From NCBI GenBank assembly GCA_020638795.1, contig JACKHW010000005.1, forward strand, positions 218,023 to 282,022: a stretch of 64,000 nucleotides of DNA. Reading direction: 5' to 3'. The DNA is from Planctomycetota bacterium. GTDB lineage: Bacteria; Planctomycetota; UBA1135; GCA-002748355. Under the pieces are notes generated by a model, which did not search any database, was not told where the DNA came from, and was given only the letters and a program-made list of their open reading frames with translations. This document shows, piece after piece, positions 2,334-51,447 of this stretch. The position numbers were made by a program, and so were the translations under genes. How positions within the stretch are numbered: position 1 is the stretch's first letter; the number at the start of each line of letters is the position of its first letter.

Positions 2334-3542
2334 TTACGTACCGATCTCACCAGCCGGAATGCGCCGAAGCGTGTCGTCGTAGCGCAAGTACTTCGATCCG
2401 CGACGCAGCCACGCTTCTTCGCCCTCTTGGAGAGCATCGTGCAGAGCCCGATCACCCACTCGACCCTCGAGATAGTCGAGCAAGCGCGGGTCGGCGGCGA
2501 GCAACTCGATCGCGGGGCGATCGCTGCGGAACTCGTACTTCTCCGTACGCCAACGGAACTCCGGTGCAAGGTCCTTGATCCACCGCAGCAGCTTCAGCAT
2601 GTGGCGCAGCGAGGGATAACGCGATGGATCGGACGCGTCCGTCAAGTGGATCTGCCAGCCATGGCAGAGTTCGTTGCCGAACTTGTGGAACGTCGGTACG
2701 AAGCGCAATGGCCGCAGTACCGCACCGACTTCGCACGGCGGCTCCTCGCGCATGAGCGGCGCGAGCCACGACGCGCCGAAGATCTCGAACGGACGCGTGG
2801 TGCCGCGGCCTTCACTGAGGTTGGTGCCCTCGAGCAGACAACCACCGGCGTAGACGCGCGCTGTGTTCGCGGTCGGCATGTTGGGCGATGGCGACACCGG
2901 GTCGTGCCACTCGAACGGATCGCGGCACGGCAGCACGTGCATCGTGACATCGGCACCGGTCACCTCCTGATAGAACGACGCGAGTTCCGCCGTCGTCAGC
3001 CCATGACGATGCGGCAGACCCGGCCGCCCGACGAACGACTCGTGTTCTGCGGCAAGCGCGATCCCCTCGACGTAGCGACCGCAAGGGTTCGGTCGATCGA
3101 GGATCCACACGTCGAGCTTCGAACCGTCTGACGCGACACGATCGAAGACGTAGCTCAGCGTCGTCGCGAACGTGTAGTACCGCGCACCGACGTCCTGCAG
3201 ATCGACGACGAGCGCATCGAGATCCGCGAGGTGCGCCGACGAGACCGTCAGGCTGTCTTCCGTGTCGCCGTAGAGCGAGACGACTTCGGCCTCGATCCCG
3301 AGGTCGCGATAGACCCGCGCATCCTGCGGAAGTTGATCCTGCAGTTCGGCGAACAGCCCGTGCTCGGGCGCGAACACGCGCTGCAGGTTGCCGCGCTTCG
3401 ACAGCGCATCCCAGAGGTAGCAGCCACGCGTGGTCGACCAGCTCGTCATGTTGGCGAGGAGCCCGAGCCGCCCTTCGTGGAGGACGGCATCGTTGCGCGC
3501 GAGGAAGTCGTCGATCGGATCGTGCGTGTGCGTGTCGGGCAT
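2334..3542 (-). CDS. DUF1343 family protein (NamZ-like exo-beta-N-acetylmuramidase family)
   Basis: 402-aa ORF with ATG at 3542. Motifs LLANMTSW, FAPEHG and DLQDVGARYYTF are characteristic of DUF1343. Confidence 0.8.
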   Translation of the reverse strand: MPDTHTHDPIDDFLARNDAVLHEGRLGLLANMTSWSTTRGCYLWDALSKRGNLQRVFAPEHGLFAELQDQLPQDARVYRDLGIEAEVVSLYGDTEDSLTVSSAHLADLDALVVDLQDVGARYYTFATTLSYVFDRVASDGSKLDVWILDRPNPCGRYVEGIALAAEHESFVGRPGLPHRHGLTTAELASFYQEVTGADVTMHVLPCRDPFEWHDPVSPSPNMPTANTARVYAGGCLLEGTNLSEGRGTTRPFEIFGASWLAPLMREEPPCEVGAVLRPLRFVPTFHKFGNELCHGWQIHLTDASDPSRYPSLRHMLKLLRWIKDLAPEFRWRTEKYEFRSDRPAIELLAADPRLLDYLEGRVGDRALHDALQEGEEAWLRRGSKYLRYDDTLRRIPAGEIGT

Positions 3543-3554
3543 GTCCGCAGGAAC

Positions 3555-3961
3555 CTATCCGCAGCACCGCGAAAGCGAAATGCCCACGGCGGTCAGGCAC
3601 TCACGCGTTCGAAGAAACTCGTCACGCGAGCACGCGTCGGCTCCGAGCGCGAGCGCTTCGAGCACGTCGAGGGCCGTGATGATCTTGCGGCTCGCGAGCA
3701 GCCGGACCTTCGATCGCAGAACATGATGCTCGCGGGCCGCATGCACGCGCGGCAATGAGTGCGCGAGCGGCATCCCTACCGAGTCGCTGTCTTCGAGCGG
3801 TGCCGCGCCGGTTCCGTCTTCTTCACCATCGACCGTGATGAAGTCGGGGACGATGCCGGTGTCCTGCATCGCGCTGCAAGTGCTTCGAACTCACGCATCG
3901 AGCCGACACAGAGCAGGCAGCCCACGATCAGGATGAAGAAGGCAGGCTTGACGAAGCGCAT
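3555..3961 (-). pseudogene. Remnant of an FMN-binding glutamate-synthase-family (YerD-like) gene
   Basis: Frame A (3961 down to ~3899) encodes only a TM-like N-terminus, MRFVKPAFFILIVGCLLCVGS. Frame B (3869..3555) encodes a 104-aa internal piece, PDFITVDGEEDGTGAAPLE...GMPL...RKIITALDVLEALALGADAC. That piece matches the GltS FMN-domain core (xDxItIDGxxGGTGAxP ... GKIxTxxDxxxAlALGAD), which sits around residue 330 of ~500-aa relatives. The frames differ and about 300 codons are missing. Confidence 0.5.
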
Positions 3962-4098
3962 CGTTCCGTTCCTCGGGTTGCAGCTTGCAAACGGACGACT
4001 GCGAACAACGCGAACTCCCCGCTGCTTTTGTCTGTGCGATTCACAGTGCGGTCAGCGCTGAGGTCTCCGTCCGAGAAATCAATCAAGGAGAGACCGAG

Positions 4099-5199
4099 AT
4101 GAACACCTTCCGAAAGACACTTCCACTGATCGTCGCGATGACCGCCACTGGCTTCTTGCACGCGCAAGACGGAACGGAGAACGTACAGATCGAGAGCTAC
4201 GGTGTGAGCTGCGGTGCGCAGCTGACTGGCTCGATCGCAACGAGGCGGCTCGCGATCACGGTGACGGATGCACTGCCGTGCCAACCGGTCGCGATCGTGC
4301 TCGGTTCGCATGCGCAGAGCTTGGCGCTGCCGGGATCGCCGTGCCGTCTGCTCACGAATGCGCAGCTTTCGGTGCCGTTGCTCGCGAACTCGCGCGGTGC
4401 GGCATCGCTCGAGATTCCGCTGCCCGGAGCGTTCTCGAGCCTCTTCGCCCAGGCAATCGCGCATGACGCGGGCAAGCAGCGCTTCGTCGGTTCGCAAGGC
4501 TTGGCCGTGCACGATGCCACAAAGGACGAGCGCGTGATCGCGGTCGTGCGGGCGGGCGGTTCGTACATCCGCTTCGTCGAATCCGAACCCGGCGAGCTCC
4601 TCATCGTCGCGCTCGATGGCACGAAGGCGCATCGCGATGCATTCGCGCGCTACGAAAGCGGCGCGATCACGGCCGCCGAACTCTATACGTCACTCTCCGG
4701 ATTGACCGCGCCGAGCGCGCTTCGAGCGCTCTCCGTGAAGGTCGCGAATGCGCGCAAGTCGGAGACCATCGAAACGCCTCTGCAGGGTTCGATTCTGGCA
4801 CCGTTCGTCGGAGTGCTGCCCGGTGCAGTTCCGGGGCCTCGCGGGCAGAGTGGCAACGCCGGTCCCGCGGCATGCAACAGCGCCTCGTGGTTCACCGGCA
4901 TGTATTGCAATCACCCCGGGGACTTCGAGTACTGCTGGACCAACTTGACGGGCAATCCGTGGGTCCAGAAGTACTGCCACGCGATGTATGGACGCGTCGC
5001 CTCGGTGAGCGGCAACTTCGGGTTTGCCTACAGGCGCTGGAACGGCAGCAGTTGGTACATCGTTTGGTCGACCAACGTGACGACCTGCCAGACCTTCTAC
5101 TGCAACGCGAGCTACTCGTCGCCCCGGCACTGGCGCCGGATGGACGTCGCAGGCGGCGACGGCGATCTCAAGCACTTCCGCGTCGCCGGCTACAACTGA
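4099..5199 (+). CDS. Secreted hypothetical protein with the two-Cys shared module at the N-terminus and a Cys/Trp/Tyr-rich C-terminal domain
   Basis: ATG at 4099 is preceded by AAGGAG (4085-4090). Signal peptide is MNTFRKTLPLIVAMTATGFLHA|QDG. The track ORF starts upstream at 3985, but that extension lacks a signal peptide. Confidence 0.7.
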   Translation: MNTFRKTLPLIVAMTATGFLHAQDGTENVQIESYGVSCGAQLTGSIATRRLAITVTDALPCQPVAIVLGSHAQSLALPGSPCRLLTNAQLSVPLLANSRGAASLEIPLPGAFSSLFAQAIAHDAGKQRFVGSQGLAVHDATKDERVIAVVRAGGSYIRFVESEPGELLIVALDGTKAHRDAFARYESGAITAAELYTSLSGLTAPSALRALSVKVANARKSETIETPLQGSILAPFVGVLPGAVPGPRGQSGNAGPAACNSASWFTGMYCNHPGDFEYCWTNLTGNPWVQKYCHAMYGRVASVSGNFGFAYRRWNGSSWYIVWSTNVTTCQTFYCNASYSSPRHWRRMDVAGGDGDLKHFRVAGYN

Positions 5200-5376: not shown

Positions 5377-5673
5377 TCACCTTCTTGCGCTGCGGGCTCT
5401 TGCGACCTGTCGCTTCCGCCCAGCAGCCAAAAAGGCGGCTCCGATGGCGATCGACGCGAGGTAGGGCGCGGCACTCAACCAGGTCAAATGGTCGGGACCT
5501 CCTCGGAAGTCGATCAGATCATAGAAGTGCAAACTCGAGATCCCCAAGAACCCGCAGATCATGAGGACGATCGCGGAAACGCGCAGCCACTCCACCCTCT
5601 TCCTGGTCACGAGAAGCGACACGGCGAAGAGGCCGTCCGCGATCATGAACAGCTCGAACCAGGTAATGATCAC
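5377..5673 (-). CDS. Small integral membrane protein (about 3 TM helices)
   Basis: GTG at 5673 overlaps the TGA stop of the upstream GT2 gene (GTGA, 5670-5673). The product, VIITWFELFMIADGLFAVSLLV...SAIVLMICGFLGISSL...YLASIAIGAAFLAAG, is hydrophobic. The remainder of the 312-aa track ORF is Arg-rich shadow sequence. Confidence 0.5.
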   Translation of the reverse strand: MIITWFELFMIADGLFAVSLLVTRKRVEWLRVSAIVLMICGFLGISSLHFYDLIDFRGGPDHLTWLSAAPYLASIAIGAAFLAAGRKRQVARARSARR

Positions 5674-6584
5674 GCGTTCGACCGTCCTCGCCCGACCACC
5701 TGCCCCGCCGCCTTCTTGAGCTCCCCCGCGAGCGCCGGCGCCATGCGCAGGAAGCGCTTGCGCAGCCGCGCGCGTACGCGTCGCTTGTCGCGTGCACTCA
5801 GGTCCTGCGCGGCGAGCACACGGCGCATTTCGCGCCACAGGCCCCACATCGGCATCACGACGCGTTTGCCATGCTTGGGGTCGAACCACGTCGCGAGGCG
5901 TTGGGGCGTCGCGGCTTCGATCATCGACGTGCCGGGGTGCAACCTGCGGACGAAGAGCGGCTCGTCGATCTCGCGGAACGTGCCGGCGAACGCGAGTTCG
6001 AATAGCAATGTCTGGTCGGATGCGACGTGGGTCGCGATCTTCGGTGTCTTGGCGAGCGCGGACGAGCGGAAGACGCCGAAGATCGACATCCAGACGTCGT
6101 CGTTCTGGTCGGCGAAGTCGAGCAGGTGCAGGGCGCGTGCCGCGGGGTCGGCGTCGAGCAGATCGAGCGTGCCGCCCGAGTCGCGCAGGAGCTGATCGTC
6201 TTCGTCGATATAGCGCGTCTTGGGGAACGCGACGACGCACGACGGATCGCGTTCGAGCGCTTCGACGCAGCGGCGGAAGAAGCCGGGCGCACACAGGTCG
6301 TCGTGAGCCGCCCACTTGAAGTACTTCCCACGTGCGTGCTCGAAGACGAGGTTGTAGTTGCCAGCGCCACCGACGTTGACCTCGTTGCGCGCGATCGACA
6401 CGCGAGCGTCGTTCGCGGCGATGCGTTCACAAATAGCGACCGTGTCGTCGGTCGATGCGTTGTCGCGGATGACGACTTCGAAGTCGGCGAAGTCCTGCGC
6501 GAGGATCGAGCTCAACGCTTCTTCGATCCAGCGCGCACCGTTGCGCACCGGCATGCCGATACTGAGGACCGGGTCTCGCCCCAT
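5670..6584 (-). CDS. Family 2 glycosyltransferase
   Basis: 304 aa. N-terminal GT-A motifs are LSIGMPVRNGARWIEEALSSILAQDFADFEVVIRDNASTDDT and a DxD-like AAHDD. Confidence 0.85.
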   Translation of the reverse strand: MGRDPVLSIGMPVRNGARWIEEALSSILAQDFADFEVVIRDNASTDDTVAICERIAANDARVSIARNEVNVGGAGNYNLVFEHARGKYFKWAAHDDLCAPGFFRRCVEALERDPSCVVAFPKTRYIDEDDQLLRDSGGTLDLLDADPAARALHLLDFADQNDDVWMSIFGVFRSSALAKTPKIATHVASDQTLLFELAFAGTFREIDEPLFVRRLHPGTSMIEAATPQRLATWFDPKHGKRVVMPMWGLWREMRRVLAAQDLSARDKRRVRARLRKRFLRMAPALAGELKKAAGQVVGRGRSNA

Positions 6585-6603: not shown

Positions 6604-9600
6604 CTACCGCACCTTGCCCCCGCGCTTCTCCAAAAGCGGCGTGAAGTAGCGGTAGTAGACCTCGAGGCTCAGCACGCACATCGCGGTCGTGTAGCTGCGA
6701 TCCTTGCGCGTGTCCTTCGCGTAGCGCGCGTAGGCCCCGACCGGCGCGAAACTCCCGTCCGAGCTCTGGCCGCGTGGCAGCTCGACGCGCAGCTTCTCGT
6801 TCCAGAGCCGCCATGCGTCGCCGCCGCGGAAGAAGCACGCGAGCGTGCCGTAGTACCAGAAGTACGGGTTCCCGGCCCCCCGCTGCACGAAGTCGTCGTC
6901 GCTTGCCCGCGCGTACTTCTCGATGCGGCGATCGGTCGTGAAGCGCAGCCCCGTCTCGATGCGCGGATCTTCCGGATCCTGGCCGAGCAACAAGAGGCAG
7001 AACACCGATGCAGGAGTCGACGCTGGCAGCGTGCGCCACGTCATCTGCAAACGCTGCGGTTCCTTCGTGTAGAGGAAGTAGCCGTAGCGATCATCGAACA
7101 TTTCGAGCAAGAAGCCCTTCGCCATCGCGAGCGCTCGCTCCGGGACGTCGAGCCCCGAACGACGCGCCGACTCGAGGGCCATGATCTGCCAACTCGAAAC
7201 CGAGGCACGGCTGTACGGATCCTCGGGCTTCAGCGTCGGACTGTAGTAGCCCCAACCACCGCGACTGTGCCGCGGTCCGCCGTCTCTCTGCTGCTCGAGG
7301 ATCCAGTCAACCGCGTGGCTCAGTGGCTTCTGCAGCCATGGCAGCTTGGTCAGCGCGTAGCACTCGGCAAGCGCGTACGTCGTGATGCCGTGGCTGTAGG
7401 ACGACGAACGCCCGAAGTGCCCCGTGTCCTCGTCCTGACTCGCGAGCAGAAAGCGGATCGCGCGCGCGACGTTGGTCGCGTACTGCCCCTTGCCGACCGG
7501 ATCGCCGTCCTGCCCGGGCGCGGGGATCGTCGGTGGCAGGTTGCCCGCACCGAGGAAGGCGAGCAGACAGAGCGCCGACTTGCCGACGCGCACTTCGCCG
7601 TACTTCTCGTCGTAGTCGTCCTCTTCGCCCCAACCACCATCGTCTCGTTGGATCTTGGCGAGGTAGCGAAGGCCCTTCTGCACCGCGAGTTCGGTCTCCT
7701 CGGTGCCGCCGAAGCGCGCGAGCGCCTCGACCTTCTTCTTGCCGAAGCGGTTCGCATAGAGCGAGACCTCGGCGGGCTTCTTCTCCGTGACCGGTACGAC
7801 TCGTACGCGTCGCTGTGCACGATCGACCTGCGTCGACGGTGGAAGCACGCTGCCGGCATCGAGTCCGTCACGCCGGCGTTCGTCGCCGAGCATCGCGACC
7901 GGGCTCGAGGGCAAGGTCTCGACCTTTTGGATGCGTGGCAGAGCAACGCGTTCGACGCTGACCGACGGCGGCCCCTCGGTCGCACGCCGAATCGGGACAG
8001 CGCGGGACGCGATAGGCGCGTTCACGGCAACCGCTGTCGCCGGCACCGAGACGCGGCGTGACGACATCGGCCTGGCGCGTGCGACGCGTTCGGATCTTCC
8101 TCCGACGCGGACGACGCGTGGCTTGGCGAGATCGAACTCGGGCGGTGCGACGCTCGCGCCTTCGACGAAACTCGGAGCAGGTTGCGCGTCGAGCGCTCGC
8201 TGCGGCTGCGCCACGGCGGCGCGTGCTTCGTCGGCCTTCGTCACGAGTTCGCGTGCGGTCACGCGCGACTCGTCGAGTGCGGTCCCGGGCTTCGGTGCAT
8301 CGGCGATCGCGCCCGTGTCCACTGGCGTGTCGACCGCGATTGCGGGCGCGAGGCCGGGTCGCGGCCCGTTGGCGACGAGCGGCCGGCCGTCGCGCGTCCG
8401 TGCTGGCGGTGCACGGCGCGTGCGTGGCTTGGCGAAATCGGTGGACGGCGGCGCAATCTCCGCAGCGATGTCGTCGACCGGGCGTTCCGCTTCGGCCTTG
8501 TTCGCTGCTGCCGTCACGACCTCGGACGACGCGCGTTGGATCGTTGCGGCCTTGGCGGTCAGCGCTTCGCCCGTTTCGTCCGACTTCGCCCTACCCTTCG
8601 CGCTCGCGACACGATTCGCATCGGGCGTGTCCCGCAACTGCGGCTCGCGTGCCGACAGCTCGCGCTGCGTGACGGCGGGAGCGACACGTGCCATCCGTTC
8701 TGGTCCGGGGCGCTTCGAGGTCACACCGGACAAGACCGCATCGGGTGCGGGCAGATTCGCTTGTTGCTCGAGGTCGCGCGCCTTGCTGTCCGCGACACGT
8801 TCGGCATCGGGAACCGTCTCGAGCCGCGCGGTGCTCGTCGAAGCTGCCGCCGGTCGTGCCATCGCGGGATCCGCGTTCATGCCGAGCTTCGCTTCGACGG
8901 CCTCGAAGGCGGAGTCGGTTTCGACGGTCGGAATCGCGATCGCTACGGGCTCCTGCGCGCGCACGTCCCGGCTCGCTGCCGGCACACTGCGAGCAGCGGT
9001 CTCGCCCGACTTCGGCGTCGCGTCCGCAAGAGTCGACGCGGACGGGATCGCGACTTCGATCACCGCTCGTTCGGCAGCGCGCTGAGGGTCGGCGGCCTCG
9101 GTCTTCGCTTGTTCTGCAGTCGTCGCGATCGCGTCCGGAGCCACCGTCGTGTCCTGCCCGGACTTGGGCGCGAACTTCGGCAACTCCTCGGTCACGGCAC
9201 GCGCCTCGGTCGTCGGCGCATCGAGCTTCGCGACTTCGGTCGTGAGTTCGCGCGAACGGTCCGCCAAGAACTCCGCACGTTCCTGTCCGTCGCGCGCCGC
9301 GGTCGCCACCGATGTCTGCGGGACTACCGGCGCGAGGTCTCGTTCGAAACCTTCGAACTCGCGTCGCTGCCCGAGATCCGACTCCGCCCGCGCAGGCGCT
9401 TCGTCGGGTGCGCGCTCGCCCGTGAGTTCTGCCGAACTCATGAGGCGTACTTCGACGCGATCCCCGACTTCAGGCACCGGTGGCAAGAACGTGCGCACGA
9501 TCTCGACGCGCATCAACCACAGGAGCAGGAGCAAGTGGATCAGGAGCGATGCGAGCAAGCACTGCGTGATGACGTCGAGCGCTGTCCACCGTCCACCGAG

Positions 9601-10677
9601 CCAGAACATCACGAACAGCAAGAACGCCATCGCCGCGACGATCGCGAGCACCCACTCGAGGTTGCGCTGCCCGAGCCACCAGGGACGAACCAGTCGCGAA
9701 TCGGCGCGGTACTGAATGCCCGACGATTCGTCGACGAGGAAGAGTCCTCTTCCATCGTCCGCACTCCGGGGACCACGCAAGCGACCCAAATCCGCGAAAC
9801 CCGGCACGGGCAGCGGCGCGACAAAGCCCTGGACCCCCGACTCGCTCGGGTGCAACCACGTGTGGAAGAGTCGACGCCGTCCGCTCTCGAAGCGTCGCAC
9901 GAAGTAGAGCACCTCGCCCCGCGCGTCGAAGCTGCAATCGCGATCGAAGAACGTCGGATACGGACCGTCGTCGCCGATGTCGTCGAAGACCTCGTGCACC
10001 TCGACATCACGAGACGCTAGCGATCCGAGATACAGCACACCGTGCGCTCCGCGCGCGATCTCCGGATCGCGGCGCGAGAACGCGATCTGTACACCATCCG
10101 GATGCGGCGCCGGATCGGTCTCGTCGAGCGGCGTGTTGATTCCCGCGGGCAATGGCCGGACGTCGTCGAAGCCGCGACCGTTCCATCGCGCGGACCACAG
10201 GTCGAAGCCGCCGGCTCCACCAGGACGGTCGGACGCGAAGTACAGACGACCGTCGATCCCGAACGCCGGCGCGAGGTCGTGCGAAGGACCGTCGATCGAC
10301 GCGATCATCTCCGGCTCGAGCCTTGGCCGCTCGGGATCGAAGATGACGAGTTCGGTCTCGGCGCCAATCGGCGTGCCGCACTTGCGGGCGTACAAGATGC
10401 GCCCGTCGGGCAACGCACACGTGCGCCCGCGAATGTCACCTGTCAATTCGGTGGCCGGCATCGGCGTATCGAAGACGAGCATCGACGCGTCGCGCAGCGT
10501 CGTCGCATTGCGTGGGGACACGCCACTCGAGTACCAGATCGGTCGCCCCGAACGCAGCATGACGAGCCCGAGCAGCGCGACGAAGAAGACTAGGAGCGCA
10601 GCGAGCGCGAAGATGCGGCGCTTCTTGCTCCTGGGCGGTCTCTTGCCCTTGGTCTCGTTCGCGTTCTTCTTGGCCAT
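6604..10677 (-). CDS. Giant envelope protein: N-terminal TM, PD40/TolB-like beta-propeller, two TM helices, long Ala/Pro/Arg-rich linker and a C-terminal prenyltransferase/squalene-oxidase-repeat (alpha/alpha toroid) domain
   Basis: 1357 aa. TM1 is IFALAALLVFFVALLGLVML. PD40-type repeats include DGRLYFASDRPGGAGGFDLWSARW. TM2/3 are WVLAIVAAMAFLLFVMFWLG and CLLASLLIHLLLLLWLM. The low-complexity linker spans about residues 400-890. C-terminal repeats are LRYLAKIQRDDGGWG and EQQRDGG...GGWGYY. Confidence 0.85.
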   Translation of the reverse strand: MAKKNANETKGKRPPRSKKRRIFALAALLVFFVALLGLVMLRSGRPIWYSSGVSPRNATTLRDASMLVFDTPMPATELTGDIRGRTCALPDGRILYARKCGTPIGAETELVIFDPERPRLEPEMIASIDGPSHDLAPAFGIDGRLYFASDRPGGAGGFDLWSARWNGRGFDDVRPLPAGINTPLDETDPAPHPDGVQIAFSRRDPEIARGAHGVLYLGSLASRDVEVHEVFDDIGDDGPYPTFFDRDCSFDARGEVLYFVRRFESGRRRLFHTWLHPSESGVQGFVAPLPVPGFADLGRLRGPRSADDGRGLFLVDESSGIQYRADSRLVRPWWLGQRNLEWVLAIVAAMAFLLFVMFWLGGRWTALDVITQCLLASLLIHLLLLLWLMRVEIVRTFLPPVPEVGDRVEVRLMSSAELTGERAPDEAPARAESDLGQRREFEGFERDLAPVVPQTSVATAARDGQERAEFLADRSRELTTEVAKLDAPTTEARAVTEELPKFAPKSGQDTTVAPDAIATTAEQAKTEAADPQRAAERAVIEVAIPSASTLADATPKSGETAARSVPAASRDVRAQEPVAIAIPTVETDSAFEAVEAKLGMNADPAMARPAAASTSTARLETVPDAERVADSKARDLEQQANLPAPDAVLSGVTSKRPGPERMARVAPAVTQRELSAREPQLRDTPDANRVASAKGRAKSDETGEALTAKAATIQRASSEVVTAAANKAEAERPVDDIAAEIAPPSTDFAKPRTRRAPPARTRDGRPLVANGPRPGLAPAIAVDTPVDTGAIADAPKPGTALDESRVTARELVTKADEARAAVAQPQRALDAQPAPSFVEGASVAPPEFDLAKPRVVRVGGRSERVARARPMSSRRVSVPATAVAVNAPIASRAVPIRRATEGPPSVSVERVALPRIQKVETLPSSPVAMLGDERRRDGLDAGSVLPPSTQVDRAQRRVRVVPVTEKKPAEVSLYANRFGKKKVEALARFGGTEETELAVQKGLRYLAKIQRDDGGWGEEDDYDEKYGEVRVGKSALCLLAFLGAGNLPPTIPAPGQDGDPVGKGQYATNVARAIRFLLASQDEDTGHFGRSSSYSHGITTYALAECYALTKLPWLQKPLSHAVDWILEQQRDGGPRHSRGGWGYYSPTLKPEDPYSRASVSSWQIMALESARRSGLDVPERALAMAKGFLLEMFDDRYGYFLYTKEPQRLQMTWRTLPASTPASVFCLLLLGQDPEDPRIETGLRFTTDRRIEKYARASDDDFVQRGAGNPYFWYYGTLACFFRGGDAWRLWNEKLRVELPRGQSSDGSFAPVGAYARYAKDTRKDRSYTTAMCVLSLEVYYRYFTPLLEKRGGKVR

Positions 10678-10704: not shown

Positions 10705-11121
10705 TCAGCGTCCGTTCGCTCGTGGTGTCGCGCCGATCGCGATCTGACGTAACGGTGCGGCACGACACGCGTCGAGCACGCGCGCGACGACGCCGAACTG
10801 CGTGTTGGTATCGCCGCGGATCAACACTTCTTGTCCCTCGTTGCGCTTGGCCGCACTGCGCAGCATTTGCTCGAGGACCGGCATGCGGATCTCCTTGCCG
10901 TCGACGGTCAGCGCGCCGTTCTCGAGCACGTTGATGATGATCGGGCGTGCGTCCTTCTTGGTCGTGCCGGTCGTCGCGTCGGGCAGACGGAGATCCATCT
11001 CGACCTCTTCCTTGCGGAACGTCGTCGCGACGAGGAAGAAGATGAGCAACAAGAAGACGATGTCGATCAGCGGCGTGAGGTTGGGTGTCGCGTCGACTTC
11101 TTCACCCAGATCAAGCCGCAT
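10705..11121 (-). CDS. exbD: ExbD/TolR family biopolymer transport protein
   Basis: 138 aa with a single TM and the family motif NLTPLIDIVFLLLIFFLV. It overlaps the upstream exbB-like gene by 11 nt. Confidence 0.9.
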   Translation of the reverse strand: MRLDLGEEVDATPNLTPLIDIVFLLLIFFLVATTFRKEEVEMDLRLPDATTGTTKKDARPIIINVLENGALTVDGKEIRMPVLEQMLRSAAKRNEGQEVLIRGDTNTQFGVVARVLDACRAAPLRQIAIGATPRANGR

Positions 11122-11785
11122 CGCGAATCTCCGGCTTGCCCGCGAGACGCTCGACCCACGGTGCGAGCCGCTCGTCGCACGCGAGCATCAGGCGACGCGA
11201 CTTGCCCGAGAAGTGCGCTGCGATGAGCATCGTCGGGATCGCGACGCAGAGCCCCGCGATCGTCGTGACGAGAGCGACTTCGATCCCGGACGCCAACATC
11301 TCCGGCTCCCCCATCTTCGTCTTGACGACGCGATGGAACGCTTCCTGGATCCCGAGCACCGTGCCGAGCAGACCGAGCAGGGGCGCGACGCCCGCGATGA
11401 GGTGGAGCGTGCGGTTGTTGCCGCGGAGCTTCTCGAGTTCCTTGTGCGCTTGGTCCTCCATCGCGACCTCGACCGCGCGCACCGGATGACCCTGGCGACG
11501 CATACCTGCGAGAAGGATGCGGGAGGCGGGCGCGTTCATCTCTTCGAGGATCGTCTTGGCGCCTTCGTGGTCGCCGGCACCGAGCTTCGCTTCGGCCTCT
11601 TCGAGACGTGCCGGAATCACGCGCGAGCGCGTCAGTGTGCGCAAGCGTTCGAGCGTGAACGCGACCGCGACGAGCGAACAGAGCGCGATCGGGATCATGA
11701 CCGGCCCGCCAGAACTCAGGAAGTCCCAGACGGTCTGCACCGTGGTCTCGGTCTGCAACCGTGCGATCGAAAGAAGCGACGTCAT
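11111..11785 (-). CDS. exbB: MotA/TolQ/ExbB proton-channel protein
   Basis: 224 aa with three TM segments and a conserved C-terminal region, LGLLGTVLGIQEAF...GIEVALVTTIAGLCVAIP. Confidence 0.9.
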   Translation of the reverse strand: MTSLLSIARLQTETTVQTVWDFLSSGGPVMIPIALCSLVAVAFTLERLRTLTRSRVIPARLEEAEAKLGAGDHEGAKTILEEMNAPASRILLAGMRRQGHPVRAVEVAMEDQAHKELEKLRGNNRTLHLIAGVAPLLGLLGTVLGIQEAFHRVVKTKMGEPEMLASGIEVALVTTIAGLCVAIPTMLIAAHFSGKSRRLMLACDERLAPWVERLAGKPEIRDAA

Positions 11786-11837: not shown

Positions 11838-14800
11838 TCATCCGCTCAGCTTCTCGAGCAGGTTGCGCGCGGCTTTCGCGGAGTCGGACTTGGCGAAACG
11901 CTCGACGAGTTCGTTCAAGAGCTTCCTGGCCTTCTCCTTCTGGTCCTGCGCGAGGTAGCCCTCGGCAGAAGCGAGCAAGCCCTTCTGTACCCACTCGGGT
12001 TGACCGTAGAGGATCGAGAGCTTGAGCCAGGCGTCGATCGCGCCGTCGAGATCGCCCGCGTCGCGGCGCGCTTCGCCGATGCGATACTGCGCTTCGGCTC
12101 CGAGGGGGCCGTCGGAGAGTTTCGTCGCGGCTTCGAACGAGGCCACCGCGGCGTCCCAGTCCTTGCGAAGCGCACGCGCGCGACCGAGCCACAGCGCCGC
12201 CCGCGCACGATCACCTGCGGGCGCATCCTTGCTGCCGAGGATCCACTCCTCGAGGGAGCGAATCGCGGCGGCAGCGCGCCCGTCTTCGAGATCGACGTGT
12301 CCGAGGTGAAGCTTCGCCATTGGCGCGCGCGCGCCGGCGGCGTTGCGCTCGAGCAACTTGACGAACGCGTCGCGCGCCCGATTGCGATCGTCGCGCCGAT
12401 ACGCGCACTCACCCGCGAAGAAGAGCGCTTCGTCATAGAGCGACTGCGCCTCGTCTGGCCCGAGCGCGAGGATGCGTTCGAAGAGCCCGGCGGCACCTTC
12501 GAGATCACCGCGTTCGAAACGCGAGAACCCGAGGCGGTACAGCGCTTGTGCTCGATAGCGTCCTTCGGTGGCCTGGAGGAGTTCGGCCGCGCGTGCGTCG
12601 GCCTGCTTCTGCTCTGCGTCACTCAGCGCCGCTGCGGCGTTCTTCGGGCCGCCAGTGGCTCCGTTGGCTCCGTTCCCCGCCGCGTCGCCGTCGAGTTTCG
12701 CGAGTTCGGCAACACCGAGGTGGAGCTTGGCCTCACCGACGAGTTCGACGTCCTTGCTGCTCTCAGCGACCTGCGCGAACGCGGCGAGGGCGCCCTTCTC
12801 GTCGTTCTGCTTGCGGCGTGCCCATGCGAGTTCGTACCAGAGTCGGTCGGGGCGCTCGAGGCCTTGGACCGCTTTACCGTCCTTCGCGAGATCTTCGAGG
12901 GTCGCGAGTGCCTCCGCATTGCGATCGCGGCGAGCGAGGGCGACGCCGAGCGCGTAACGCATCTCGGCCGCGCGTGGATGCTTCGGGAAGCGATTCAGGA
13001 ACGTGCGCGCCGCGATCTCGGCCTTGTCGAACTGCTTTGCGCGATGGTGCAACGACGACACGAGTTCGAGCATCGAGGGCGCACCATCGCCGATCTGCGG
13101 ATGTGCGATGGCAGCATCGACGTAGCGTGCGCAGTCCTCGTCGTTGCCGAGTTCGAACGCGCACCACGCGAGCCCTTGCAACGCTTTGGCACCGACTTCG
13201 GACTTCTCGCCTGCGATCGCCTGGTACGCTTTCGCCGCGCCTTCGAAGTCACCGCGACGGAACGAAAGCTCGCCCATCTGCAGGCGGTCGGCTTCTTGCT
13301 GACCAGTGTCCTTTTCGGCGGCAGCCGCGCGCGCGACGCGTGCGGTCGCGGCCTCGAGCTGTTCTCTTCCGGCGAGCACCTGCGCGGCGACGCGCTCGGT
13401 GCGCGCGAGGTAGGTGCCGCTCGGGTGCCTGGCGAGGTAGCGATCGGCGGCCATCAGCGCGCGGTCCCCGTCGCCTGCACGGAAGCTCGCGAGTGCGGCG
13501 AGGGAGAGCGCTTCTTCGGCGAACGGACTCTCGTCGCCCGCGACGGCCTCGAAACGCTTGGCTGCCTCGGCGACGTTGCCCGCGAGGTACGCGCACCACG
13601 CGTGCTTGAACGCGGCGCGCTTCGCGAGTTCGTGTCCACCGGGGATCTTCGCGTAGTCGGCCTCGGCCTCGACGTACTTCTTCATCGCAAAGAGCCCTTC
13701 CGCCCGCGCGAAGCGAGCCTGCACCGCGAGGCGATGCTCGGGCAACGTATCGACGACGCGCCCTGCCATGCGGACCGACGCCGCGTGCTCGCCAAGCTCG
13801 TGCAACGCGACCGATGCGCCGTACAGCGCATCACCCGCGAGCGCATCGTCCTTGGATCCGAGCGCGGCATTGGCGGCGACGCCGTAGGCATCCGCCGCCT
13901 CGCGCCATTCGCTCAGCTCACTCGTCGCTTCACCGAGATCGAACGCGATGCGCGCCTTCGTCTGGATGTCGAGGTCGCCTTGCAAGGCTTTGCGGAACGA
14001 AACGCGTGCGTCCTTCGCTTTGCCGGCATCGAGCTGCGCGAGACCCAGGATCTCGAGGCCGCGAAGCCGCGACGCCCCGTCGAGGTCCTCACGCGCGAGC
14101 AATCGGTCGAGCGTCGTGATCGCGGGAGCCGTCTTGCCGAGCTGCCAGTAGATCGCTCCCTGTTCGAGCGCGGCGCCGATCGCGAGCGGGGATTCGGGGT
14201 GCTTCTCGGTGACAATGCCGAACGCGGCGGCTGCATTTTCGAGATCGTCGAGGCGGAGCTTGGACCACGCGAGACCACTGCGAGCCTCGGCGACGTGCGG
14301 GCCACCGGCCTGGATCGCGGCCTCGTAGTCGTCGATCGCGCGCTGCCACGCGCCGGCGCGGAAGGCCGACTCTCCCGCCAAGAACTGGCACTCCGCGCAC
14401 GCTTCGTGCCCCTGGAAGCGGCGCGCGGCCTCTTCGAAGCACGACGCTGCGCCCGCAGGATCGTCGAGCGAGGTCAGCACGAACCCGGCTTGATAGAGGG
14501 CGGGCATCCCGAACGTGCCTGCGGGGTCCTTCTCGGCCTTTGCCGCTTCGAGGAAGATCGCGACGGCTTGCTTCGGCTTACCGGCGTCGCGCAGGCATTC
14601 GCCGAGCGCGTATTGACCGGCGAGTCGGAGGTAATGGCCCGCCTCGACTTCGTCGACGAGCGCCTGGAGCTGTTGCGCGGCCTCGGAGAACTTCTTCTGC
14701 TGCTGCCGCAGCTTGCCGACGCGGTAGCGGCATTCGGGCCGGAACCGCAACCCCGGAGTCTCGAGCGCTGCGAGATACGCGTCGATCGCGCGATCGACGT

Positions 14801-15050
14801 TGCCGAGTTTTTCCTCGCAGCCCCCGAGCCGATAGCGCGCCTCGGGCGCGAGCGGGTGTCGAGGAGCGTCACGAAGGAAGAGTCCGAACTGCCTCGCCGC
14901 GTCGTCCCAGAGTTCTCGCTGCAGGAGGCCGATGGCCACGTCGAAGCGCTCGCGCGCCTTGTCCTGCGACCGGAGCGACGGTTGCAACGCGAAGAACGGC
15001 AGTGAGATAGCGGCGACGACGGTCCACGTCGCCGAAACGGGAGACTGCAT
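11838..15050 (-). CDS. Large secreted/periplasmic tetratricopeptide (TPR) repeat protein
   Basis: ATG at 15050 is preceded by GGAGGAAAGGA on the minus strand. The N-terminus MQSPVSATWTVVAAISLPFFAL looks like a signal peptide. Dozens of TPR-like A/L/Y/G repeats run along the length. The track start at 15230 is a TTG with no RBS. Confidence 0.85.
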   Translation of the reverse strand: MQSPVSATWTVVAAISLPFFALQPSLRSQDKARERFDVAIGLLQRELWDDAARQFGLFLRDAPRHPLAPEARYRLGGCEEKLGNVDRAIDAYLAALETPGLRFRPECRYRVGKLRQQQKKFSEAAQQLQALVDEVEAGHYLRLAGQYALGECLRDAGKPKQAVAIFLEAAKAEKDPAGTFGMPALYQAGFVLTSLDDPAGAASCFEEAARRFQGHEACAECQFLAGESAFRAGAWQRAIDDYEAAIQAGGPHVAEARSGLAWSKLRLDDLENAAAAFGIVTEKHPESPLAIGAALEQGAIYWQLGKTAPAITTLDRLLAREDLDGASRLRGLEILGLAQLDAGKAKDARVSFRKALQGDLDIQTKARIAFDLGEATSELSEWREAADAYGVAANAALGSKDDALAGDALYGASVALHELGEHAASVRMAGRVVDTLPEHRLAVQARFARAEGLFAMKKYVEAEADYAKIPGGHELAKRAAFKHAWCAYLAGNVAEAAKRFEAVAGDESPFAEEALSLAALASFRAGDGDRALMAADRYLARHPSGTYLARTERVAAQVLAGREQLEAATARVARAAAAEKDTGQQEADRLQMGELSFRRGDFEGAAKAYQAIAGEKSEVGAKALQGLAWCAFELGNDEDCARYVDAAIAHPQIGDGAPSMLELVSSLHHRAKQFDKAEIAARTFLNRFPKHPRAAEMRYALGVALARRDRNAEALATLEDLAKDGKAVQGLERPDRLWYELAWARRKQNDEKGALAAFAQVAESSKDVELVGEAKLHLGVAELAKLDGDAAGNGANGATGGPKNAAAALSDAEQKQADARAAELLQATEGRYRAQALYRLGFSRFERGDLEGAAGLFERILALGPDEAQSLYDEALFFAGECAYRRDDRNRARDAFVKLLERNAAGARAPMAKLHLGHVDLEDGRAAAAIRSLEEWILGSKDAPAGDRARAALWLGRARALRKDWDAAVASFEAATKLSDGPLGAEAQYRIGEARRDAGDLDGAIDAWLKLSILYGQPEWVQKGLLASAEGYLAQDQKEKARKLLNELVERFAKSDSAKAARNLLEKLSG

Positions 15051-15313
15051 TCCTTTCCTCCGATCAGGCCGAGCAGTGGGCGCTCGGTATTTCCGCCTTG
15101 CCGGGCAGAGGCAGCCGACTGTGGCTGGAGCCTTTCGCGAGTATTGTACGAAACGAACCGGGCCCGAGTTCGATCCAGATCCGAACTCCCGTGACGTCCG
15201 CGCCGCCGAAGTTCCGGCGTGCGCGTGCAATCCCGGAAGATTCCGATCTCATCGCGAATTGCCCATGCCGGCGCTTGCTCTCGGCCCCGATCGGCAATGG
15301 ACTGGTGTCCGAT

Positions 15314-16870
15314 ATGTTGCGTACGCTTTCCCGGATCACGGTCGCTGCCTCCGTCCTCGCTGCTTGTGCCTGGGCGTCGTGGACTCTGACGTCGATGACA
15401 CTCGGGCGCGCGGCGCCCCGAACGCCCGCACCGGCGGGAAACTCCGCCGGCGCTGCGGGAACGCTGTCCAAAGTGGTCCCGGTGCCGCAGGACGTCGCCC
15501 AGGACGAGGGCTCGCAGCAAGATCGTTTGCGGAGCACGCACAAGCCCGCTGCGGTCGACAGTATTCGCATCACGCCGGTCGTCCGTGCCGTGCAGAAGGC
15601 GGCGCCTTCGGTCCTCAACATCCAGGTCGGCGACATCGTGCGCACGACACAGGGGCCCGCGTTCCGGAAGCTCGGAGAAGGCTCGGGCGTGATCGTGAGC
15701 GAAGAGGGTCTCGTCCTCACCAATTGGCACGTCGTGCGGTTCAAGGAGCAACTCGGCAACGCGTTCGAATGTCGCGTCAAGCTGCGGGACGATCAGCAGT
15801 TTCCGGCGCGCGTGATCAACACGTCCCGCGAGAACGACCTCGCCTTGCTGCTCATTTCGCCCGAGGACGGCGTCTCGCATCGCTTCCCGCCGATCGAAAT
15901 GGGCGACTCGGACTCGCTGATGATCGGCGAGACCGTGATCGCGATCGGGAATCCGCGCGGGCAGGTCAACACCGTGACGACCGGCGTGCTGTCAGCCGTC
16001 GGAAGGTCGCTATCGGTACAACCGCGCGGCGAACGACGTCCGATCCAGTTCGACATGCTCCTGCAGCACGATGCGGCGATCAACCCGGGCAACTCCGGCG
16101 GTGGACTCGTCGACTTGACCGGCAAGCTCATCGGCATCAACACTCTGATGCAGGCCGAGTCGCAGAACATCAACTTCGCGATCCCGGTCAATCACGTCCG
16201 CACGATCTTCGAGCAGAACCTGCTCAACGTGTCCCGGCTCGCGATCTGGTTCGGCATCGAAACCGCGGCGCGAGACGGGCGCTTCGCGATCACGCGCGTC
16301 ATGCCGTCGAGCCCCGCGGCTCGCGCTGGCCTTCAGGTCGGGGACGCGATCGACCAAGTCGGAGAGCGAAAGACGGTCGACGACAAGTCGTTCGCGACTG
16401 CGCTCATCACCTATCGGGTCGGACAGCGCGTGCCGTTCTTGGTCGAGCGAGCTGGCGCCCAGGATTGGAAGTACGTCGACGCGTGGAGCCGGAGCGCGGG
16501 CACGATCCTCGACGTCGCTGGGTGCGTCGTCGAGACGGTCGACAAGGTCCGTGAGCGCAACGTGTATCGCAACGTTCTGTCGGATCTGATCGAGATCTAT
16601 CGATTCGGCGGCGGCAACTTCGACGTGCTACGCGTGACCGAACTCGAAGAGGACGGTCCCGCTGCCAAGTTCGGTCTTCGCGAAGGCGACTACATCGTCG
16701 GCTACATCGTCGAGTCGGACGACTACGAGACATGGTTGCCGCTGACCGGGGACATCGCACAACTCGCGTCGCTTCTCCAAGCTACGGGTGACGGTCGTTC
16801 GCCCCGCCTGTCGGTTTGGCGCCAGAAGGACGGGCTGCTCTCGGGCCGGATGATCGTGCGGAAGCGCTGA
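15314..16870 (+). CDS. HtrA/DegP-family trypsin-like serine protease with two PDZ-like domains
   Basis: ATG at 15314 gives a membrane-anchor/signal N-terminus, MLRTLSRITVAASVLAACAWASW. Triad motifs are LTNWHVV (His), NDLALLLI (Asp) and INPGNSGGGL (Ser). PDZ segment is VMPSSPAARAGLQVGDAI. Confidence 0.85.
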   Translation: MLRTLSRITVAASVLAACAWASWTLTSMTLGRAAPRTPAPAGNSAGAAGTLSKVVPVPQDVAQDEGSQQDRLRSTHKPAAVDSIRITPVVRAVQKAAPSVLNIQVGDIVRTTQGPAFRKLGEGSGVIVSEEGLVLTNWHVVRFKEQLGNAFECRVKLRDDQQFPARVINTSRENDLALLLISPEDGVSHRFPPIEMGDSDSLMIGETVIAIGNPRGQVNTVTTGVLSAVGRSLSVQPRGERRPIQFDMLLQHDAAINPGNSGGGLVDLTGKLIGINTLMQAESQNINFAIPVNHVRTIFEQNLLNVSRLAIWFGIETAARDGRFAITRVMPSSPAARAGLQVGDAIDQVGERKTVDDKSFATALITYRVGQRVPFLVERAGAQDWKYVDAWSRSAGTILDVAGCVVETVDKVRERNVYRNVLSDLIEIYRFGGGNFDVLRVTELEEDGPAAKFGLREGDYIVGYIVESDDYETWLPLTGDIAQLASLLQATGDGRSPRLSVWRQKDGLLSGRMIVRKR

Positions 16871-34212: not shown

Positions 34213-37200
34213 TCAGGCCTCCGCGGTCGCTTCGACGTTCTCGTCCTGAGTCCGCTTCTTCGCACCCTTGCTGCGGGCTGCGGGCTTGCGGACTGGAACC
34301 TCGGCGTCGACGGTGCGGATCCGCGCGACGTGCGCTTCGGACGCGGCGCCCTCGTCGAGCACATCGTCCACGGCGCCGCTCTCGACGTCCTCGAGACTCA
34401 CACTCATGCGGCTCGAGATGCCCTTGCGGGGCATCGTGACGCCGTAGAGCACGCGGCAGTCGGCCATCGTGCGCTTGTGGTGAGTCACCACGAGGAACTG
34501 CGTCTCCTTCGTGAAATCGTGCAACACACGCAAGAAGCGCTCGACGTTGGCCTCGTCGAGTGCGGCGTCGACTTCGTCGAGAATGCAGAACGGCGACGGG
34601 CGGATCTGGAAGACCGCGAAGAGGATCGCGAGCGCGGTCATCGAACGCTCACCACCGGACAGCAGCCTTATCGAACGCAGCTCCTTGCCCGGCGGCCTCG
34701 CGAAGATCTCGATGCCAGCGTCTAGCGGATCGTCGGTCTCGACGAGTTCGATGTCTGCCTTTCCGCCCTGGAACAACTTGCGGAAGATCTCTTGGAAGTT
34801 CTTGCGCGCGAGATGGAACGTCTCTTCGAAGAGCTTGCGCGACTCGAGATTGATCTGGTGGATCGCGTCGATCAGTTCGCGCTTCGCCTTCTCGAGGTCG
34901 ACGCAATCGCGCTCGAGCTGATCGAACTGTCTCTCGGCCTCCGCGAGTTCGCGCTCGGCATCGAGGTTGATGGCCCCCATGCGCTGCATGCGCACGCGAA
35001 GCACTCCGGCCTCCTTTCGTGCTTCGTCACGATCGAAATCGTCCTGCTCCCAGAGCCGTTCGAGTTCGAGTTCGGGCAGCCAGTAGTCGGGTGGAAGCGT
35101 CGGTCCCTGGAGCGACGAGTTGACGACGCGCTCGAAAACCGGCCCACTCGGAGGCAACTCGGGTCCGGCGACTTCGCGTTCGGACCAGATGCCGCGACCT
35201 TCGACTTCGCCGCGGAGGCGCGCGAGTTCGATCCCGCAGTCCTCGTAGACCTCGCTGTCGAGTCGCTCGAGGCGCATCGATGTTTCTTGGTTGCGCAAGT
35301 AGACCGTCGATCGTGCTTCGCGTGCGGATTCGTACTCGGACTCGATTTCTTGCACGGAACGCCGACCTTCGTCGCGCGCGGCTTCGAGTTCTCGCAGGTT
35401 CTCGGAAGCTTGTTGCACGATGTCCTCGACCGCCTGCGCACGACAACCGAAGTCGACGACTTCGATGCGCAACTGCTCGATGCGACTGACGGTCTCATCG
35501 TGCTCGCGGGTCGAACTCACGCTGCGTCGTTCGAGTTCGCGGCGGCGTTTCTCGAGGTCTTCGATTGCCGCACCGAGTAGCGCACGCTGCTGATCGCGGC
35601 CGCGCATCTCCGCATCGAGACCGGCCTTGCGCGTCTGCGCTTCGGCGAGGCGATCCTGTGTTTCGTGCACGTCACGATCGAGACCCGTCAGCGCGGTGCG
35701 TGCTTCGCGTTGCAGGGCGAGCGTCTCCCTCTCACGCCGATCGAGGAGCACGAGATTCATGATCGGATGCATCCGCGCGCCAAGCGACGTGATGCTCTGG
35801 CCCTCGAGGCGCACGAGCTCTTTGCGACGCAGCTCGAGTTCTTCGATCGTCTCGCGCTCGCGTGCCTGGCGCGTCTGTTGCGCATGCGTGGCGGCCGTGA
35901 GGTTCTTGTCGAGGCTCTCCACCATCGCCTCCAGACGCCGGCGCCCCGCGCCGTGCTGCTCGAGCACATGGTCGAGACTCGACTCCTCGTGACGTGTCGC
36001 CTCGAGTTCGCGATCGACGATCTCGAGACGGCCACTCAAGTGTTCGAGCTGGCTCCGACGCTGCAAGGGGCTCGCTGCCACCTCGGCACAGCCAGCCTGG
36101 ATCCACGCGCCATCGACGGTTTCGCCGCGCAAAGTCACGCAACGCTCGCCGGCAGCGTATGCAGCATCGAGATCCGGAACGAGCAGGACACCCGCCAGCG
36201 CATCGGCGAGCAGCGCTTTCGCGGGCTCTTTGAAGCGACAGTAGTCCGCGATCGGCACGCCCTCGCGGGGCAAGGCGTCCGGCAACGGCTTGGCATCCGC
36301 CGCGTGCTCACCACGTTCGTCCTGCGTTGCGCCATCTGCGCGATTCGTGGACGATCGTGGACCGAAGCGACTGGCGTCGACGAGTGCGAGCCTTGCACCC
36401 TTGTTGGCTTCGAGCTGCGCGAGCGCTGCGTCGACACGAGCGCGATCCTCGACGACGAGCGCTTGCACTCGTGGGCCGAGAACGGCCTCGAGCGCAGGAC
36501 CGAGTTCGATCGGGAAATCGATGCACAGCGCGACGCGCGCGAGGATGCCGTTTTGCTTGCCGTCGTCGTCGCCGAGCAGCGACTTCGCAGCTTCGTCGAT
36601 CCCCGTGTAAGAGGCTTCGAGGTCCTTGAGGAGTTCGATGCGCGACACGAGCGAGGATCGCTCGCGAGCATGCGCGTGACTCCGCTGCACGACCGCGTCC
36701 TTGTCGGCAGCATGCGCGCGGATCTCGTCGATCTTGCGTTCGAGTTCGGCCCGCGCACGATCGTGCCGCTCGGTCAAGTCATCACATTCGCGTGCGCCCG
36801 CGATCGCTTCGAGGCGAACCGTCGCGAGCCGCTGCTCGAGCGTGTCCACCTGCTCGCGGAGCGCTTCCTGCCGGACGCGGATCGCACCGCCTTCGATCTC
36901 TTCCTGTCGCACGATGTTGCGAGCCCGCGTCTTGTCGTGCATCAACTCGAGCATCCGCTGGCTCAGCCGCTCGTCGACCCGCTGCTGTTCACGGAAGCGA
37001 TCTCGCGCCGTCTTGGCTGCCTCGGTCCGACTCGGGACGTCGTCGATCGCGGCCTCGAGCCGAGCGCGCAACTCGTTCTCGCCCGCTTGCAGGTCTTCGA
37101 GCTCGAGGCGCCGCGCATCGAGCAACGCGAGCGTTTCTTCGCTGGTGATCGCGTCCCGGGCCTGGAGATCGCGGAGCTCGAGGAGACGCTTTTCCGACGC

Positions 37201-40351: not shown

Positions 40352-40364
40352 CGCTCGCTCCTGC

Positions 40365-51392: not shown

Positions 51393-51447
51393 CGGAAAAG
51401 AAGTGACGGAAAGAAGTGACGGAAAGAAGTGACGGACGAGAAGTGAT
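51380..51447 (+). repeat. Tandem direct repeat, 5 units of 13-14 bp (GGAAA(A)GAAGTGAC x4 plus a degenerate GGACGAGAAGTGAT)
   Basis: Units read directly from the sequence at 51380-51393, 51394-51407, 51408-51420, 51421-51433 and 51434-51447. The repeat spans the stop of the upstream gene and the start of the downstream gene. Confidence 0.95.

Follow-up and report, generated by a model that had tools for sequence, protein, structure and literature searches.

A probable TonB/TolA-class transducer carrying a TolB-like propeller and an alpha/alpha-toroid head in a Tol-like gene module of Planctomycetota

In cryo-electron microscopy structures, TonB and TolA bind their motors through a motif termed SHLS (PMC12204202). 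The D-box of TonB (QPISVTMVTPAD, residues 43-54) is bound as an added strand by the dimer of ExbD periplasmic domains, and TolA carries a sequence similar to it (PMC10907165). In bacteria of the Planctomycetes-Verrucomicrobia-Chlamydiae (PVC) group, SHLS proteins with a vWA head lie downstream of TPR-tolQ-tolR genes (PMC12204202, 2025). For Planctomycetes, the supplement to the same study lists neither pal nor a tol-pal locus apart from a possible tolB, and the authors point out that parts of Tol-Pal can fuse, as in PorE (PMC12204202). Here we analyze a gene in a 64,000-nucleotide (nt) stretch of DNA from a Planctomycetota bacterium (assembly GCA_020638795.1, contig JACKHW010000005.1, positions 218,023 to 282,022; the whole of this stretch is the window), whose product of 1357 amino acids (aa) is probably a periplasmic force transducer of the TonB/TolA class within a four-gene, Tol-like envelope module of Planctomycetota. 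The anatomy of this protein, its motifs, the conservation of its operon and its folds were established in the analysis.

The open reading frame (ORF) at 6604..10677, on the minus strand like all features of the gene and its operon given below, is a real one, and its high third-position content of guanine plus cytosine (GC) matches that of the neighboring genes. It encodes a first transmembrane helix (TM1), a PD40 propeller, TM2 and TM3, a modular linker and an (alpha/alpha)6 toroid, an order which a sequence-only reading of the gene had proposed and which hydropathy, Pfam and AlphaFold2 (AF2) models bear out. The profile assignments made in that reading were supported: Pfam matches to PD40 (E=3.9e-9, 36.7 bits, cut-off 20.9) and SQHop_cyclase_C (E=4.2e-12, 46.2 bits, cut-off 26.1) passed their cut-offs, while Prenyltrans, with 21 bits, stayed under its cut-off of 26.5. 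NCBIfam gave partial matches only, to cyclase models and to PorE/CHU_0125 propellers, and Pfam gave no match to a vWA head domain in the protein.

Kyte-Doolittle hydropathy showed exactly three peaks of transmembrane strength, starting from residues 22, 343 and 373, and the AF2 model of the N-terminal part has helices at residues 18-43, 334-360 and 365-388. TM1 (residues 18-43, 10549..10626) is predicted to be an N-in signal-anchor, preceded by a K/R-rich cytoplasmic N-terminus with 10 K/R among its first 22 residues. TM2 (residues 334-360, 9598..9678) would return from the periplasm to the cytoplasm and is followed by a short loop dense in K/R (mean 3.2 K/R per ~12 aa in 105 homologs). This loop contains a conserved Arg-Trp (R363-W364 region, 9580-9588), which falls outside the classical SHLS description. 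TM3 (residues 365-391, 9505..9585) is the TonB/TolA-type anchor, C373-x3-S377-x3-H381-x6-L388. Since the N-terminus is rich and the loop dense in K/R, the AF2 helices agree, and the homologous TonB/TolA anchor runs from inside to outside, the topology is probably N-in, propeller out, TM2-TM3 loop in, and linker and toroid out; the positive-inside rule and homology, alongside hydropathy and the AF2 helices, are the basis of this prediction. It places propeller, linker and toroid in the periplasm, as the sequence-only reading had it for both globular domains.

The TM3 histidine, H381, is present in 110 of 111 homologs, the remaining one being a fragment. The serine is conserved in 92% and the cysteine in 94% of homologs, with Phe or Leu at His+7. 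When placed in register with the proteins of the E. coli genome, S377/H381/L388/E392 corresponds to S16/H20/L27/S31 of TonB and to S18/H22/L29/S33 of TolA, three of the four SHLS positions thus being shared with both. The nearly invariant C373 (9559-9561), which lies eight residues before the histidine and shares a helix face with S377 and H381, is not part of the classical SHLS description. Following TM3 is a D-box-like beta-strand motif, G405-D-R-V408-E-V410-R-L412-M-S (9436..9465), in which positions 408, 410 and 412 are hydrophobic in 79, 95 and 96% of 110 homologs, respectively, with polar residues between them. These hydrophobics stand at H+27/+29/+31, compared to H+25/+27/+29 for I45/V47/M49 of TonB; E. 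coli TolA reads IDAVMV from residue 50. The match is at the level of pattern only and suggests a D-box-type strand after the anchor, a resemblance that gains weight because it is conserved throughout the family.

The gene is the last of four on the same strand, in the order TPR, MotA/ExbB, ExbD and the 1357-aa gene, separated by a gap of 52 nt, an overlap of 11 nt and a gap of 27 nt, respectively. The ExbD/TolR-like motor subunit (10705..11121, 138 aa, Pfam ExbD 4.9e-29), which carries an Asp in its transmembrane helix (PLIDIVF), ends 27 nt upstream of the 1357-aa gene, and the gene for the MotA/ExbB/TolQ-like motor subunit (11111..11785, 224 aa, Pfam MotA_ExbB 1.1e-29) overlaps that of the ExbD-like subunit. 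The best NCBIfam match of the ExbD-like protein was TolR (1.7e-17, 64 bits, cut-off 127) and that of the ExbB-like protein was TolQ (7.7e-18, 65 bits, cut-off 221), the latter protein being 34% identical to E. coli TolQ over 98 aa. The first gene (11838..15050) encodes a ~1070-aa TPR protein which matches Pfam TPR families and, over six CpoB/YbgF-like stretches, passes TIGR02795 tol_pal_ybgF with 208 bits against a cut-off of 90.1; it is far larger than CpoB. Its ORF, called mechanically, reaches a TTG at 15230. Translation probably begins at the Met at 15050, which precedes a signal-peptide-like segment that lacks a lipobox Cys, and would give a soluble periplasmic protein. Together, the conserved operon with its motor and CpoB-like genes, the S-x3-H-x6-L anchor and the D-box-like strand support the earlier suggestion that the long linker is a spacer of the TonB/TolA kind with the toroid as its distal head. 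Two further candidates were rejected. The GT2 gene downstream (5670-6584, minus strand, 19 nt away) adjoins no homolog in five contigs and was not taken as part of the system, and membership in an anti-phage system of the Zorya/MotAB type was discarded, since only a weak, generic ZorA match was found on the ExbB-like protein (2e-6) and none on the other three.

A full-length search returned 111 homologs, nearly all of them full-length, and more than 100 share the architecture in independent samples. Where a source gives them a name, it is 'PD40 domain-containing protein' or 'hypothetical', while a search with the toroid only returned mostly fragments named 'terpene cyclase/mutase family protein' or 'prenyltransferase/squalene oxidase repeat-containing protein'; for these genes, names of this kind are probably misleading or wrong. 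The N-terminal region alone gave 60 clusters at E<=1e-30 among 1.84 billion representatives. The four-gene order was identical in five of five homolog contigs, including one without a toroid. When species-representative genomes were scanned with the toroid alignment, at least 573 were positive, and locus-level counts refer to the best 80 of these, which are all metagenome-assembled and belong to Planctomycetota, including Phycisphaerales, with a few Verrucomicrobiota and Kiritimatiellia. The N-terminal region, TM3 motif, ExbD, ExbB and TPR were colinear in 42 of the 80 loci and complete with frameshifts in 3 more, which makes about 45 with the whole module; another 8 were consistent with the module yet cut by contig ends, and 13 encode short toroid proteins in another layout.

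Short toroid proteins of 500-590 aa (loci L057, L059, L060, L081 and L084, with ORFs at ~7300-9100 or 3239-5014 by locus numbering) are encoded in Verrucomicrobiota and in other Planctomycetota. Behind a single N-terminal TM helix with S/A-x3-H they carry a linker and the same toroid, and by sequence they have a plain TonB layout with a toroid head. In L059, an ExbB and two ExbD genes lie 3 kb upstream of the short toroid gene. Conversely, distant homologs keep TM1, propeller, TM2-TM3 and linker in the same four-gene module, with a CarboxypepD_reg domain that replaces or follows the toroid; the toroid-less variants (P0105-P0111 and L007 8001-11228) combine CarboxypepD_reg with a conserved C-terminus ('HHLGNDRF...INSQFQ...DDFEF'). 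Thus, short toroid proteins and CarboxypepD_reg swaps together point to a head that is exchangeable on a constant motor-coupling chassis. The TPR-ExbB-ExbD module of the toroid-less variants adjoins a BlaR/M56-type regulator pair. In one homolog of 1799 aa (P0066) the whole unit is doubled, with two propeller regions and two toroids, and several proteins, P0156, P0162, P0214 and P0226 among them, join a PDZ domain to this toroid. At another homolog locus (L003, 1-4246 and 13954-14973) the module stands among lipopolysaccharide (LPS) genes, namely those for Kdo kinase, LptF, LptG and a GT9 heptosyltransferase, a setting that fits a role in the envelope.

The propeller (residues 48-330, 9688..10536) consists of ~24 strands and is assigned from Pfam PD40, partial NCBIfam matches, the AF2 model and Foldseek. 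The AF2 model of residues 1-420 (predicted local distance difference test score, pLDDT, 82.8; predicted template-modeling score, pTM, 0.75) shows a beta-propeller at 48-330, for which all five top structure matches in the PDB were TolB (Foldseek E=4e-9 to 1.4e-7), whereas the sequence of the N-terminal domain had no match in the PDB. As modeled, the propeller is specifically TolB-like. Unlike soluble TolB, which has an N-terminal domain and a six-bladed propeller, it lacks the TolB N-terminal domain and sits between TM1 and TM2.

The periplasmic linker (residues 396-972, 7762..9492) is rich in Ala (19-21%), Arg (10-11%), Pro (10%) and Glu (8-9%), in agreement with the composition noted earlier. 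The lengths of 490 and 460 aa first given to linker and toroid are to be revised to ~575 and ~385 aa, as the conserved toroid begins around residue 973. In homologs, linker length varies from 238 to 861 aa (median 462) at a constant toroid of ~370 aa. A recurring linker motif had likewise been reported, and copies are found at residues 741-762 (IAPPSTDFAKPRTRRAPPARTR, 8392..8457), 843-864 (VAPPEFDLAKPRVVRVGGRSER, 8086..8151) and 944-965 (VLPPSTQVDRAQRRVRVVPVTE, 7783..7848), 102 and 101 aa apart; the last copy is the best conserved in orthologues and is disordered in AF2. Windowed autocorrelation of the linker peaked at offsets 102 (z=11.7) and 203 (z=6.0), so that the repeat goes beyond chance, and its unit is a module of ~100 aa in place of the short Pro-X-type repeat first envisaged. 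A cruder test of ungapped high-scoring segment pairs within the linker was not significant (52 versus a shuffle maximum of 48.7+-5.5). Among 93 homolog linkers, strong window pairs numbered 147 at offsets 90-104 and 79 at offsets 190-204, compared to ~31 and ~24 in shuffles, and in each of two homologs the motif occurs four times, 90-99 residues apart.

Placed by eye, six anchors at residues 448, 543, 642, 741, 843 and 944 (spacings 95, 99, 99, 102 and 101) divide the linker into a degenerate array of six modules, each anchor having a conserved Arg ~20 residues upstream. The first three anchors, at residues 448-462 (LAPVVPQTSVATAAR, 9292..9336), 543-557 (AIPSASTLADATPKS, 9007..9051) and 642-656 (LPAPDAVLSGVTSKR, 8710..8754), are degenerate, were selected by eye and count for less as evidence. 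In the four closest orthologues the sites of the anchors can be aligned, and the motif is in this sense kept, at a linker identity of only 22-39% versus 64-83% in the toroid. A hidden Markov model (HMM) built from the three motif copies found nothing beyond those copies, and a hand-seeded motif HMM gave 16 matches in only 7 proteins versus 0-1 in shuffles. Given this limited reach, the exact motif is specific to a clade, while the ~100-aa period is family-wide. At the DNA level there were no tandem repeats of relevance in the linker region. The linker modules are old and diverged. Whether linker lengths differ by module-sized steps gave a borderline result (Rayleigh R 0.258 versus a null 95% value of 0.257).

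From these features we infer motor coupling, a complex, transmission of force, a ligand for the toroid and a cellular role, in the following model. The TolQ-like and TolR-like proteins would form a proton-driven motor in the inner membrane, on which TM3 would dock from outside the TolQ-like ring through the helix face of C373, S377, H381 and L388. The TolR-like protein would capture the strand V408-E-V410-R-L412 with its periplasmic domains, much as ExbD does the TonB D-box, and movement of the motor would be relayed across the periplasm through the ~575-residue spacer of six modules. At its far end, a non-enzymatic toroid would grip a partner in or close to the outer membrane or the cell wall; glycans, lipids and proteins are candidates for this partner. 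The TolB-like propeller would be kept at the inner membrane between TM1 and TM2, the CpoB-like TPR protein would be a periplasmic partner, and the module may serve envelope maintenance or tethering in place of Tol-Pal.

Several observations weigh against this model. Neither Pfam nor NCBIfam matched TonB_C or TolA domain III in the 1357-aa protein, whose C-terminus is the (alpha/alpha)6 toroid. Lacking this C-terminal domain, the protein does not belong to the TonB or TolA family in the strict sense, and coupling to a target therefore cannot use the known beta-strand augmentation. At the fourth SHLS position stands Glu (E392) instead of Ser, and in any one sequence three alternating hydrophobics can readily occur by chance. 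Two other TM helices precede the anchor, and the neighboring TM2 and the tethered propeller might hinder docking on the motor. Furthermore, the TolQ and TolR scores are far under the curated NCBIfam cut-offs, neither the window nor five homolog contigs showed a Pal-like (OmpA-family) gene among the neighbors of the module, and four acids of the toroid that are invariant in 88 homologs (E996, E1105, D1153 and E1339) could be catalytic. Finally, all sequences of the family come from metagenome assemblies or raw metagenome contigs.

A more far-reaching version of the model, which we put forward as a tentative possibility, is that the four-gene module is the planctomycetal counterpart of Tol-Pal itself. 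The TolB-like and TolA-like parts would have been fused into a single inner-membrane protein and Pal dispensed with, the toroid would grip a glycan or lipid of the wall or outer membrane, and gain and loss of modules would tune the length of the spacer to an unusually wide and variable periplasm.

A different reading concerns the head. The toroid could be a tethered enzyme, a six-hairpin glycan hydrolase or lyase or a class II terpene cyclase-like protein, that the motor positions or gates and whose substrates would be peptidoglycan, outer-membrane glycans or hopanoid-type lipids. The head is a single (alpha/alpha)6 toroid with hairpin repeats of the Q-x-x-DG-x-W type (residues 973-1350, 6628..7761; Pfam SQHop_cyclase_C, AF2 and Foldseek). 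The AF2 model of residues 930-1357 (pLDDT 84.8, pTM 0.86) is a single barrel of 12 main helices at ~974-1345, with the Q-x-x-DG-x-W-type turns coming after outer helices, as in the repeats of cyclases and prenyltransferases. In line with an enzyme, Foldseek against the PDB placed a GH76 alpha-1,6-mannanase first (E=1.4e-7), with the type II terpene cyclase MstE and then squalene-hopene cyclases ranking next. The cyclase models of Pfam and NCBIfam match in part, some homologs match the pectate-lyase toroid model PF09492, and the invariant acids named above are four in number. However, the structural matches are at the level of the generic fold (query TM-score 0.47-0.54, root-mean-square deviation >5 A, identity 11-17%), and sequence similarity to PDB entries is confined to the repeat hairpins of squalene-hopene cyclases. 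Conservation across the 88 homologs is considerable, with 87 columns at least 85% identical and 27 columns at least 85% aromatic. DxDD occurred in 15 of these homologs, in scattered columns and not as a conserved motif, and the toroid forms one barrel where class II cyclases need two. A conserved adjacent Asp pair was not found, the Asp/Cys/His zinc triad is not conserved, and no Cys column exceeded 73%. Moreover, in the module of distant homologs the place of the toroid is taken by CarboxypepD_reg, which is not enzymatic. Thus, none of the defining features tested makes the protein a terpene cyclase or a prenyltransferase, and the search for catalytic Asp-rich motifs that the sequence-only reading had called for yielded no conserved one. 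A glycosidase-like activity through two isolated acids could exist, and a tethered enzyme is overall rather unlikely; the simplest reading of the conservation pattern is that the toroid is likely a non-enzymatic binding head, which fits the earlier proposal that it may bind and not catalyze. At residue 1046 (7540-7542), the 1357-aa protein has Asn ('GAGN') where 93% of the 88 homologs have His ('GAGH').

Alternatively, the protein could be a TonB-type energizer of nutrient uptake, its toroid engaging outer-membrane transporters or surface glycan-capture proteins and its propeller binding substrate. The anchor, the D-box-like strand and ExbB/ExbD neighbors are common to Ton and Tol, and the NCBIfam matches to ExbB and ExbD were just a few orders of magnitude weaker than those to TolQ and TolR. 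We nevertheless judge this function quite improbable. TonB_C is missing, no gene for a TonB-dependent receptor lies beside the module in the window or in the five homolog contigs, the conserved CpoB-like and TolB-like partners are hallmarks of Tol and not of Ton, and one homolog locus is set among LPS genes (Kdo kinase, LptF/G, heptosyltransferase). Finally, a chance fusion or an artefact of assembly or gene calling, without link to the motor genes, might be suspected from the metagenomic origin of every sequence and from frameshifts that split the gene at a few loci (L029, L038, L041), and is so improbable as to be effectively refuted by the conservation data: independent samples have yielded more than 100 full-length homologs with this architecture, gene order is constant in dozens of species-level genomes, and residues of TM3, the D-box-like strand and the toroid are under purifying selection.

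The surroundings of the module are those of an ordinary chromosome, with a SpoVR/DUF444 pair (46987-49622), an SMC gene (34213-38124) and an MnmE gene (38933-40549), all on the minus strand; GC content is 60-69% throughout, and nothing around the module hints at a mobile element. The plus strand encodes two serine proteases of the HtrA/DegP type that have PDZ domains, one divergently beside the TPR gene (15098-16870) and the other at 51416-54388, the latter with 990 aa and three Trypsin_2 stretches. An exo-beta-N-acetylmuramidase of the NamZ type, a peptidoglycan-recycling enzyme, is encoded 3 kb downstream of the module (2334-3542, minus strand).

The periplasm of Planctomycetes is unusual and enlarged, and these bacteria divide without FtsZ. 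The widespread module described here, with its TolQ/TolR-like motor, is a concrete candidate for attaching and energizing the planctomycetal outer membrane, and it may take the place of a Tol-Pal system, none having been found so far in Planctomycetes. The putative transducer brings along a TolB-like propeller of its own together with a new type of head, and the range of heads on SHLS-anchored transducers, TonB_C, TolA domain III and vWA, would now be widened by the toroid or CarboxypepD_reg. Moreover, spacers of 238-861 residues offer a natural series for the transmission of force across periplasms of differing width.

Among known systems, TolA resembles the 1357-aa protein in its Ser-x3-His-x6-Leu anchor, which is in register, in the D-box-like strand, in a long middle part that spans the periplasm and in the position of its gene directly after tolQ/tolR-like genes, and CpoB-like and TolB-like components are present in both systems. 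In contrast to TolA, the head is an (alpha/alpha)6 toroid of ~385 aa and not the small domain III, the anchor comes after two other TM helices, a membrane-tethered TolB-like propeller is fused in, six Pro/Ala/Arg/Glu modules of ~100 aa take the place of one long helix, and the module has no Pal gene. With TonB the protein shares an SHLS-type anchor, the position of the D-box, a Pro-containing spacer and, as the operon suggests, dependence on the ExbB/ExbD family; it differs in lacking TonB_C, short Pro-Glu/Pro-Lys repeats and neighboring receptor genes. The vWA-headed SHLS transducers occur in the same phyla (PMC12204202), whereas the protein described here has a toroid head, an extra TM1-propeller-TM2 unit and one tolR-like gene in place of a pair, L059 having two. 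The main text of that study (PMC12204202) mentions neither a toroid nor PD40, and in the literature we found no description of toroid or prenyltransferase-repeat heads on TonB-like proteins. The toroids of squalene-hopene cyclases and of prenyltransferase beta subunits are likewise alpha/alpha toroids of helical hairpins with Q-x-x-DG-x-W-type turns, and SQHop_cyclase_C was passed here; unlike them, the toroid is a single barrel with neither DxDD nor a zinc site, at 11-17% identity to solved structures. TolB and PorE, lastly, are close to the propeller: TolB gave the best structures for it, PorE/CHU_0125 gave partial matches, and CarboxypepD_reg occurs in distant homologs as it does in PorE. 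PorE is a CpoB-TolB-CarboxypepD_reg-Pal fusion lipoprotein of Bacteroidetes, whereas the 1357-aa protein is without an OmpA/Pal domain and without the TolB N-terminal domain, and its propeller would instead be held in the inner membrane by two TM helices.

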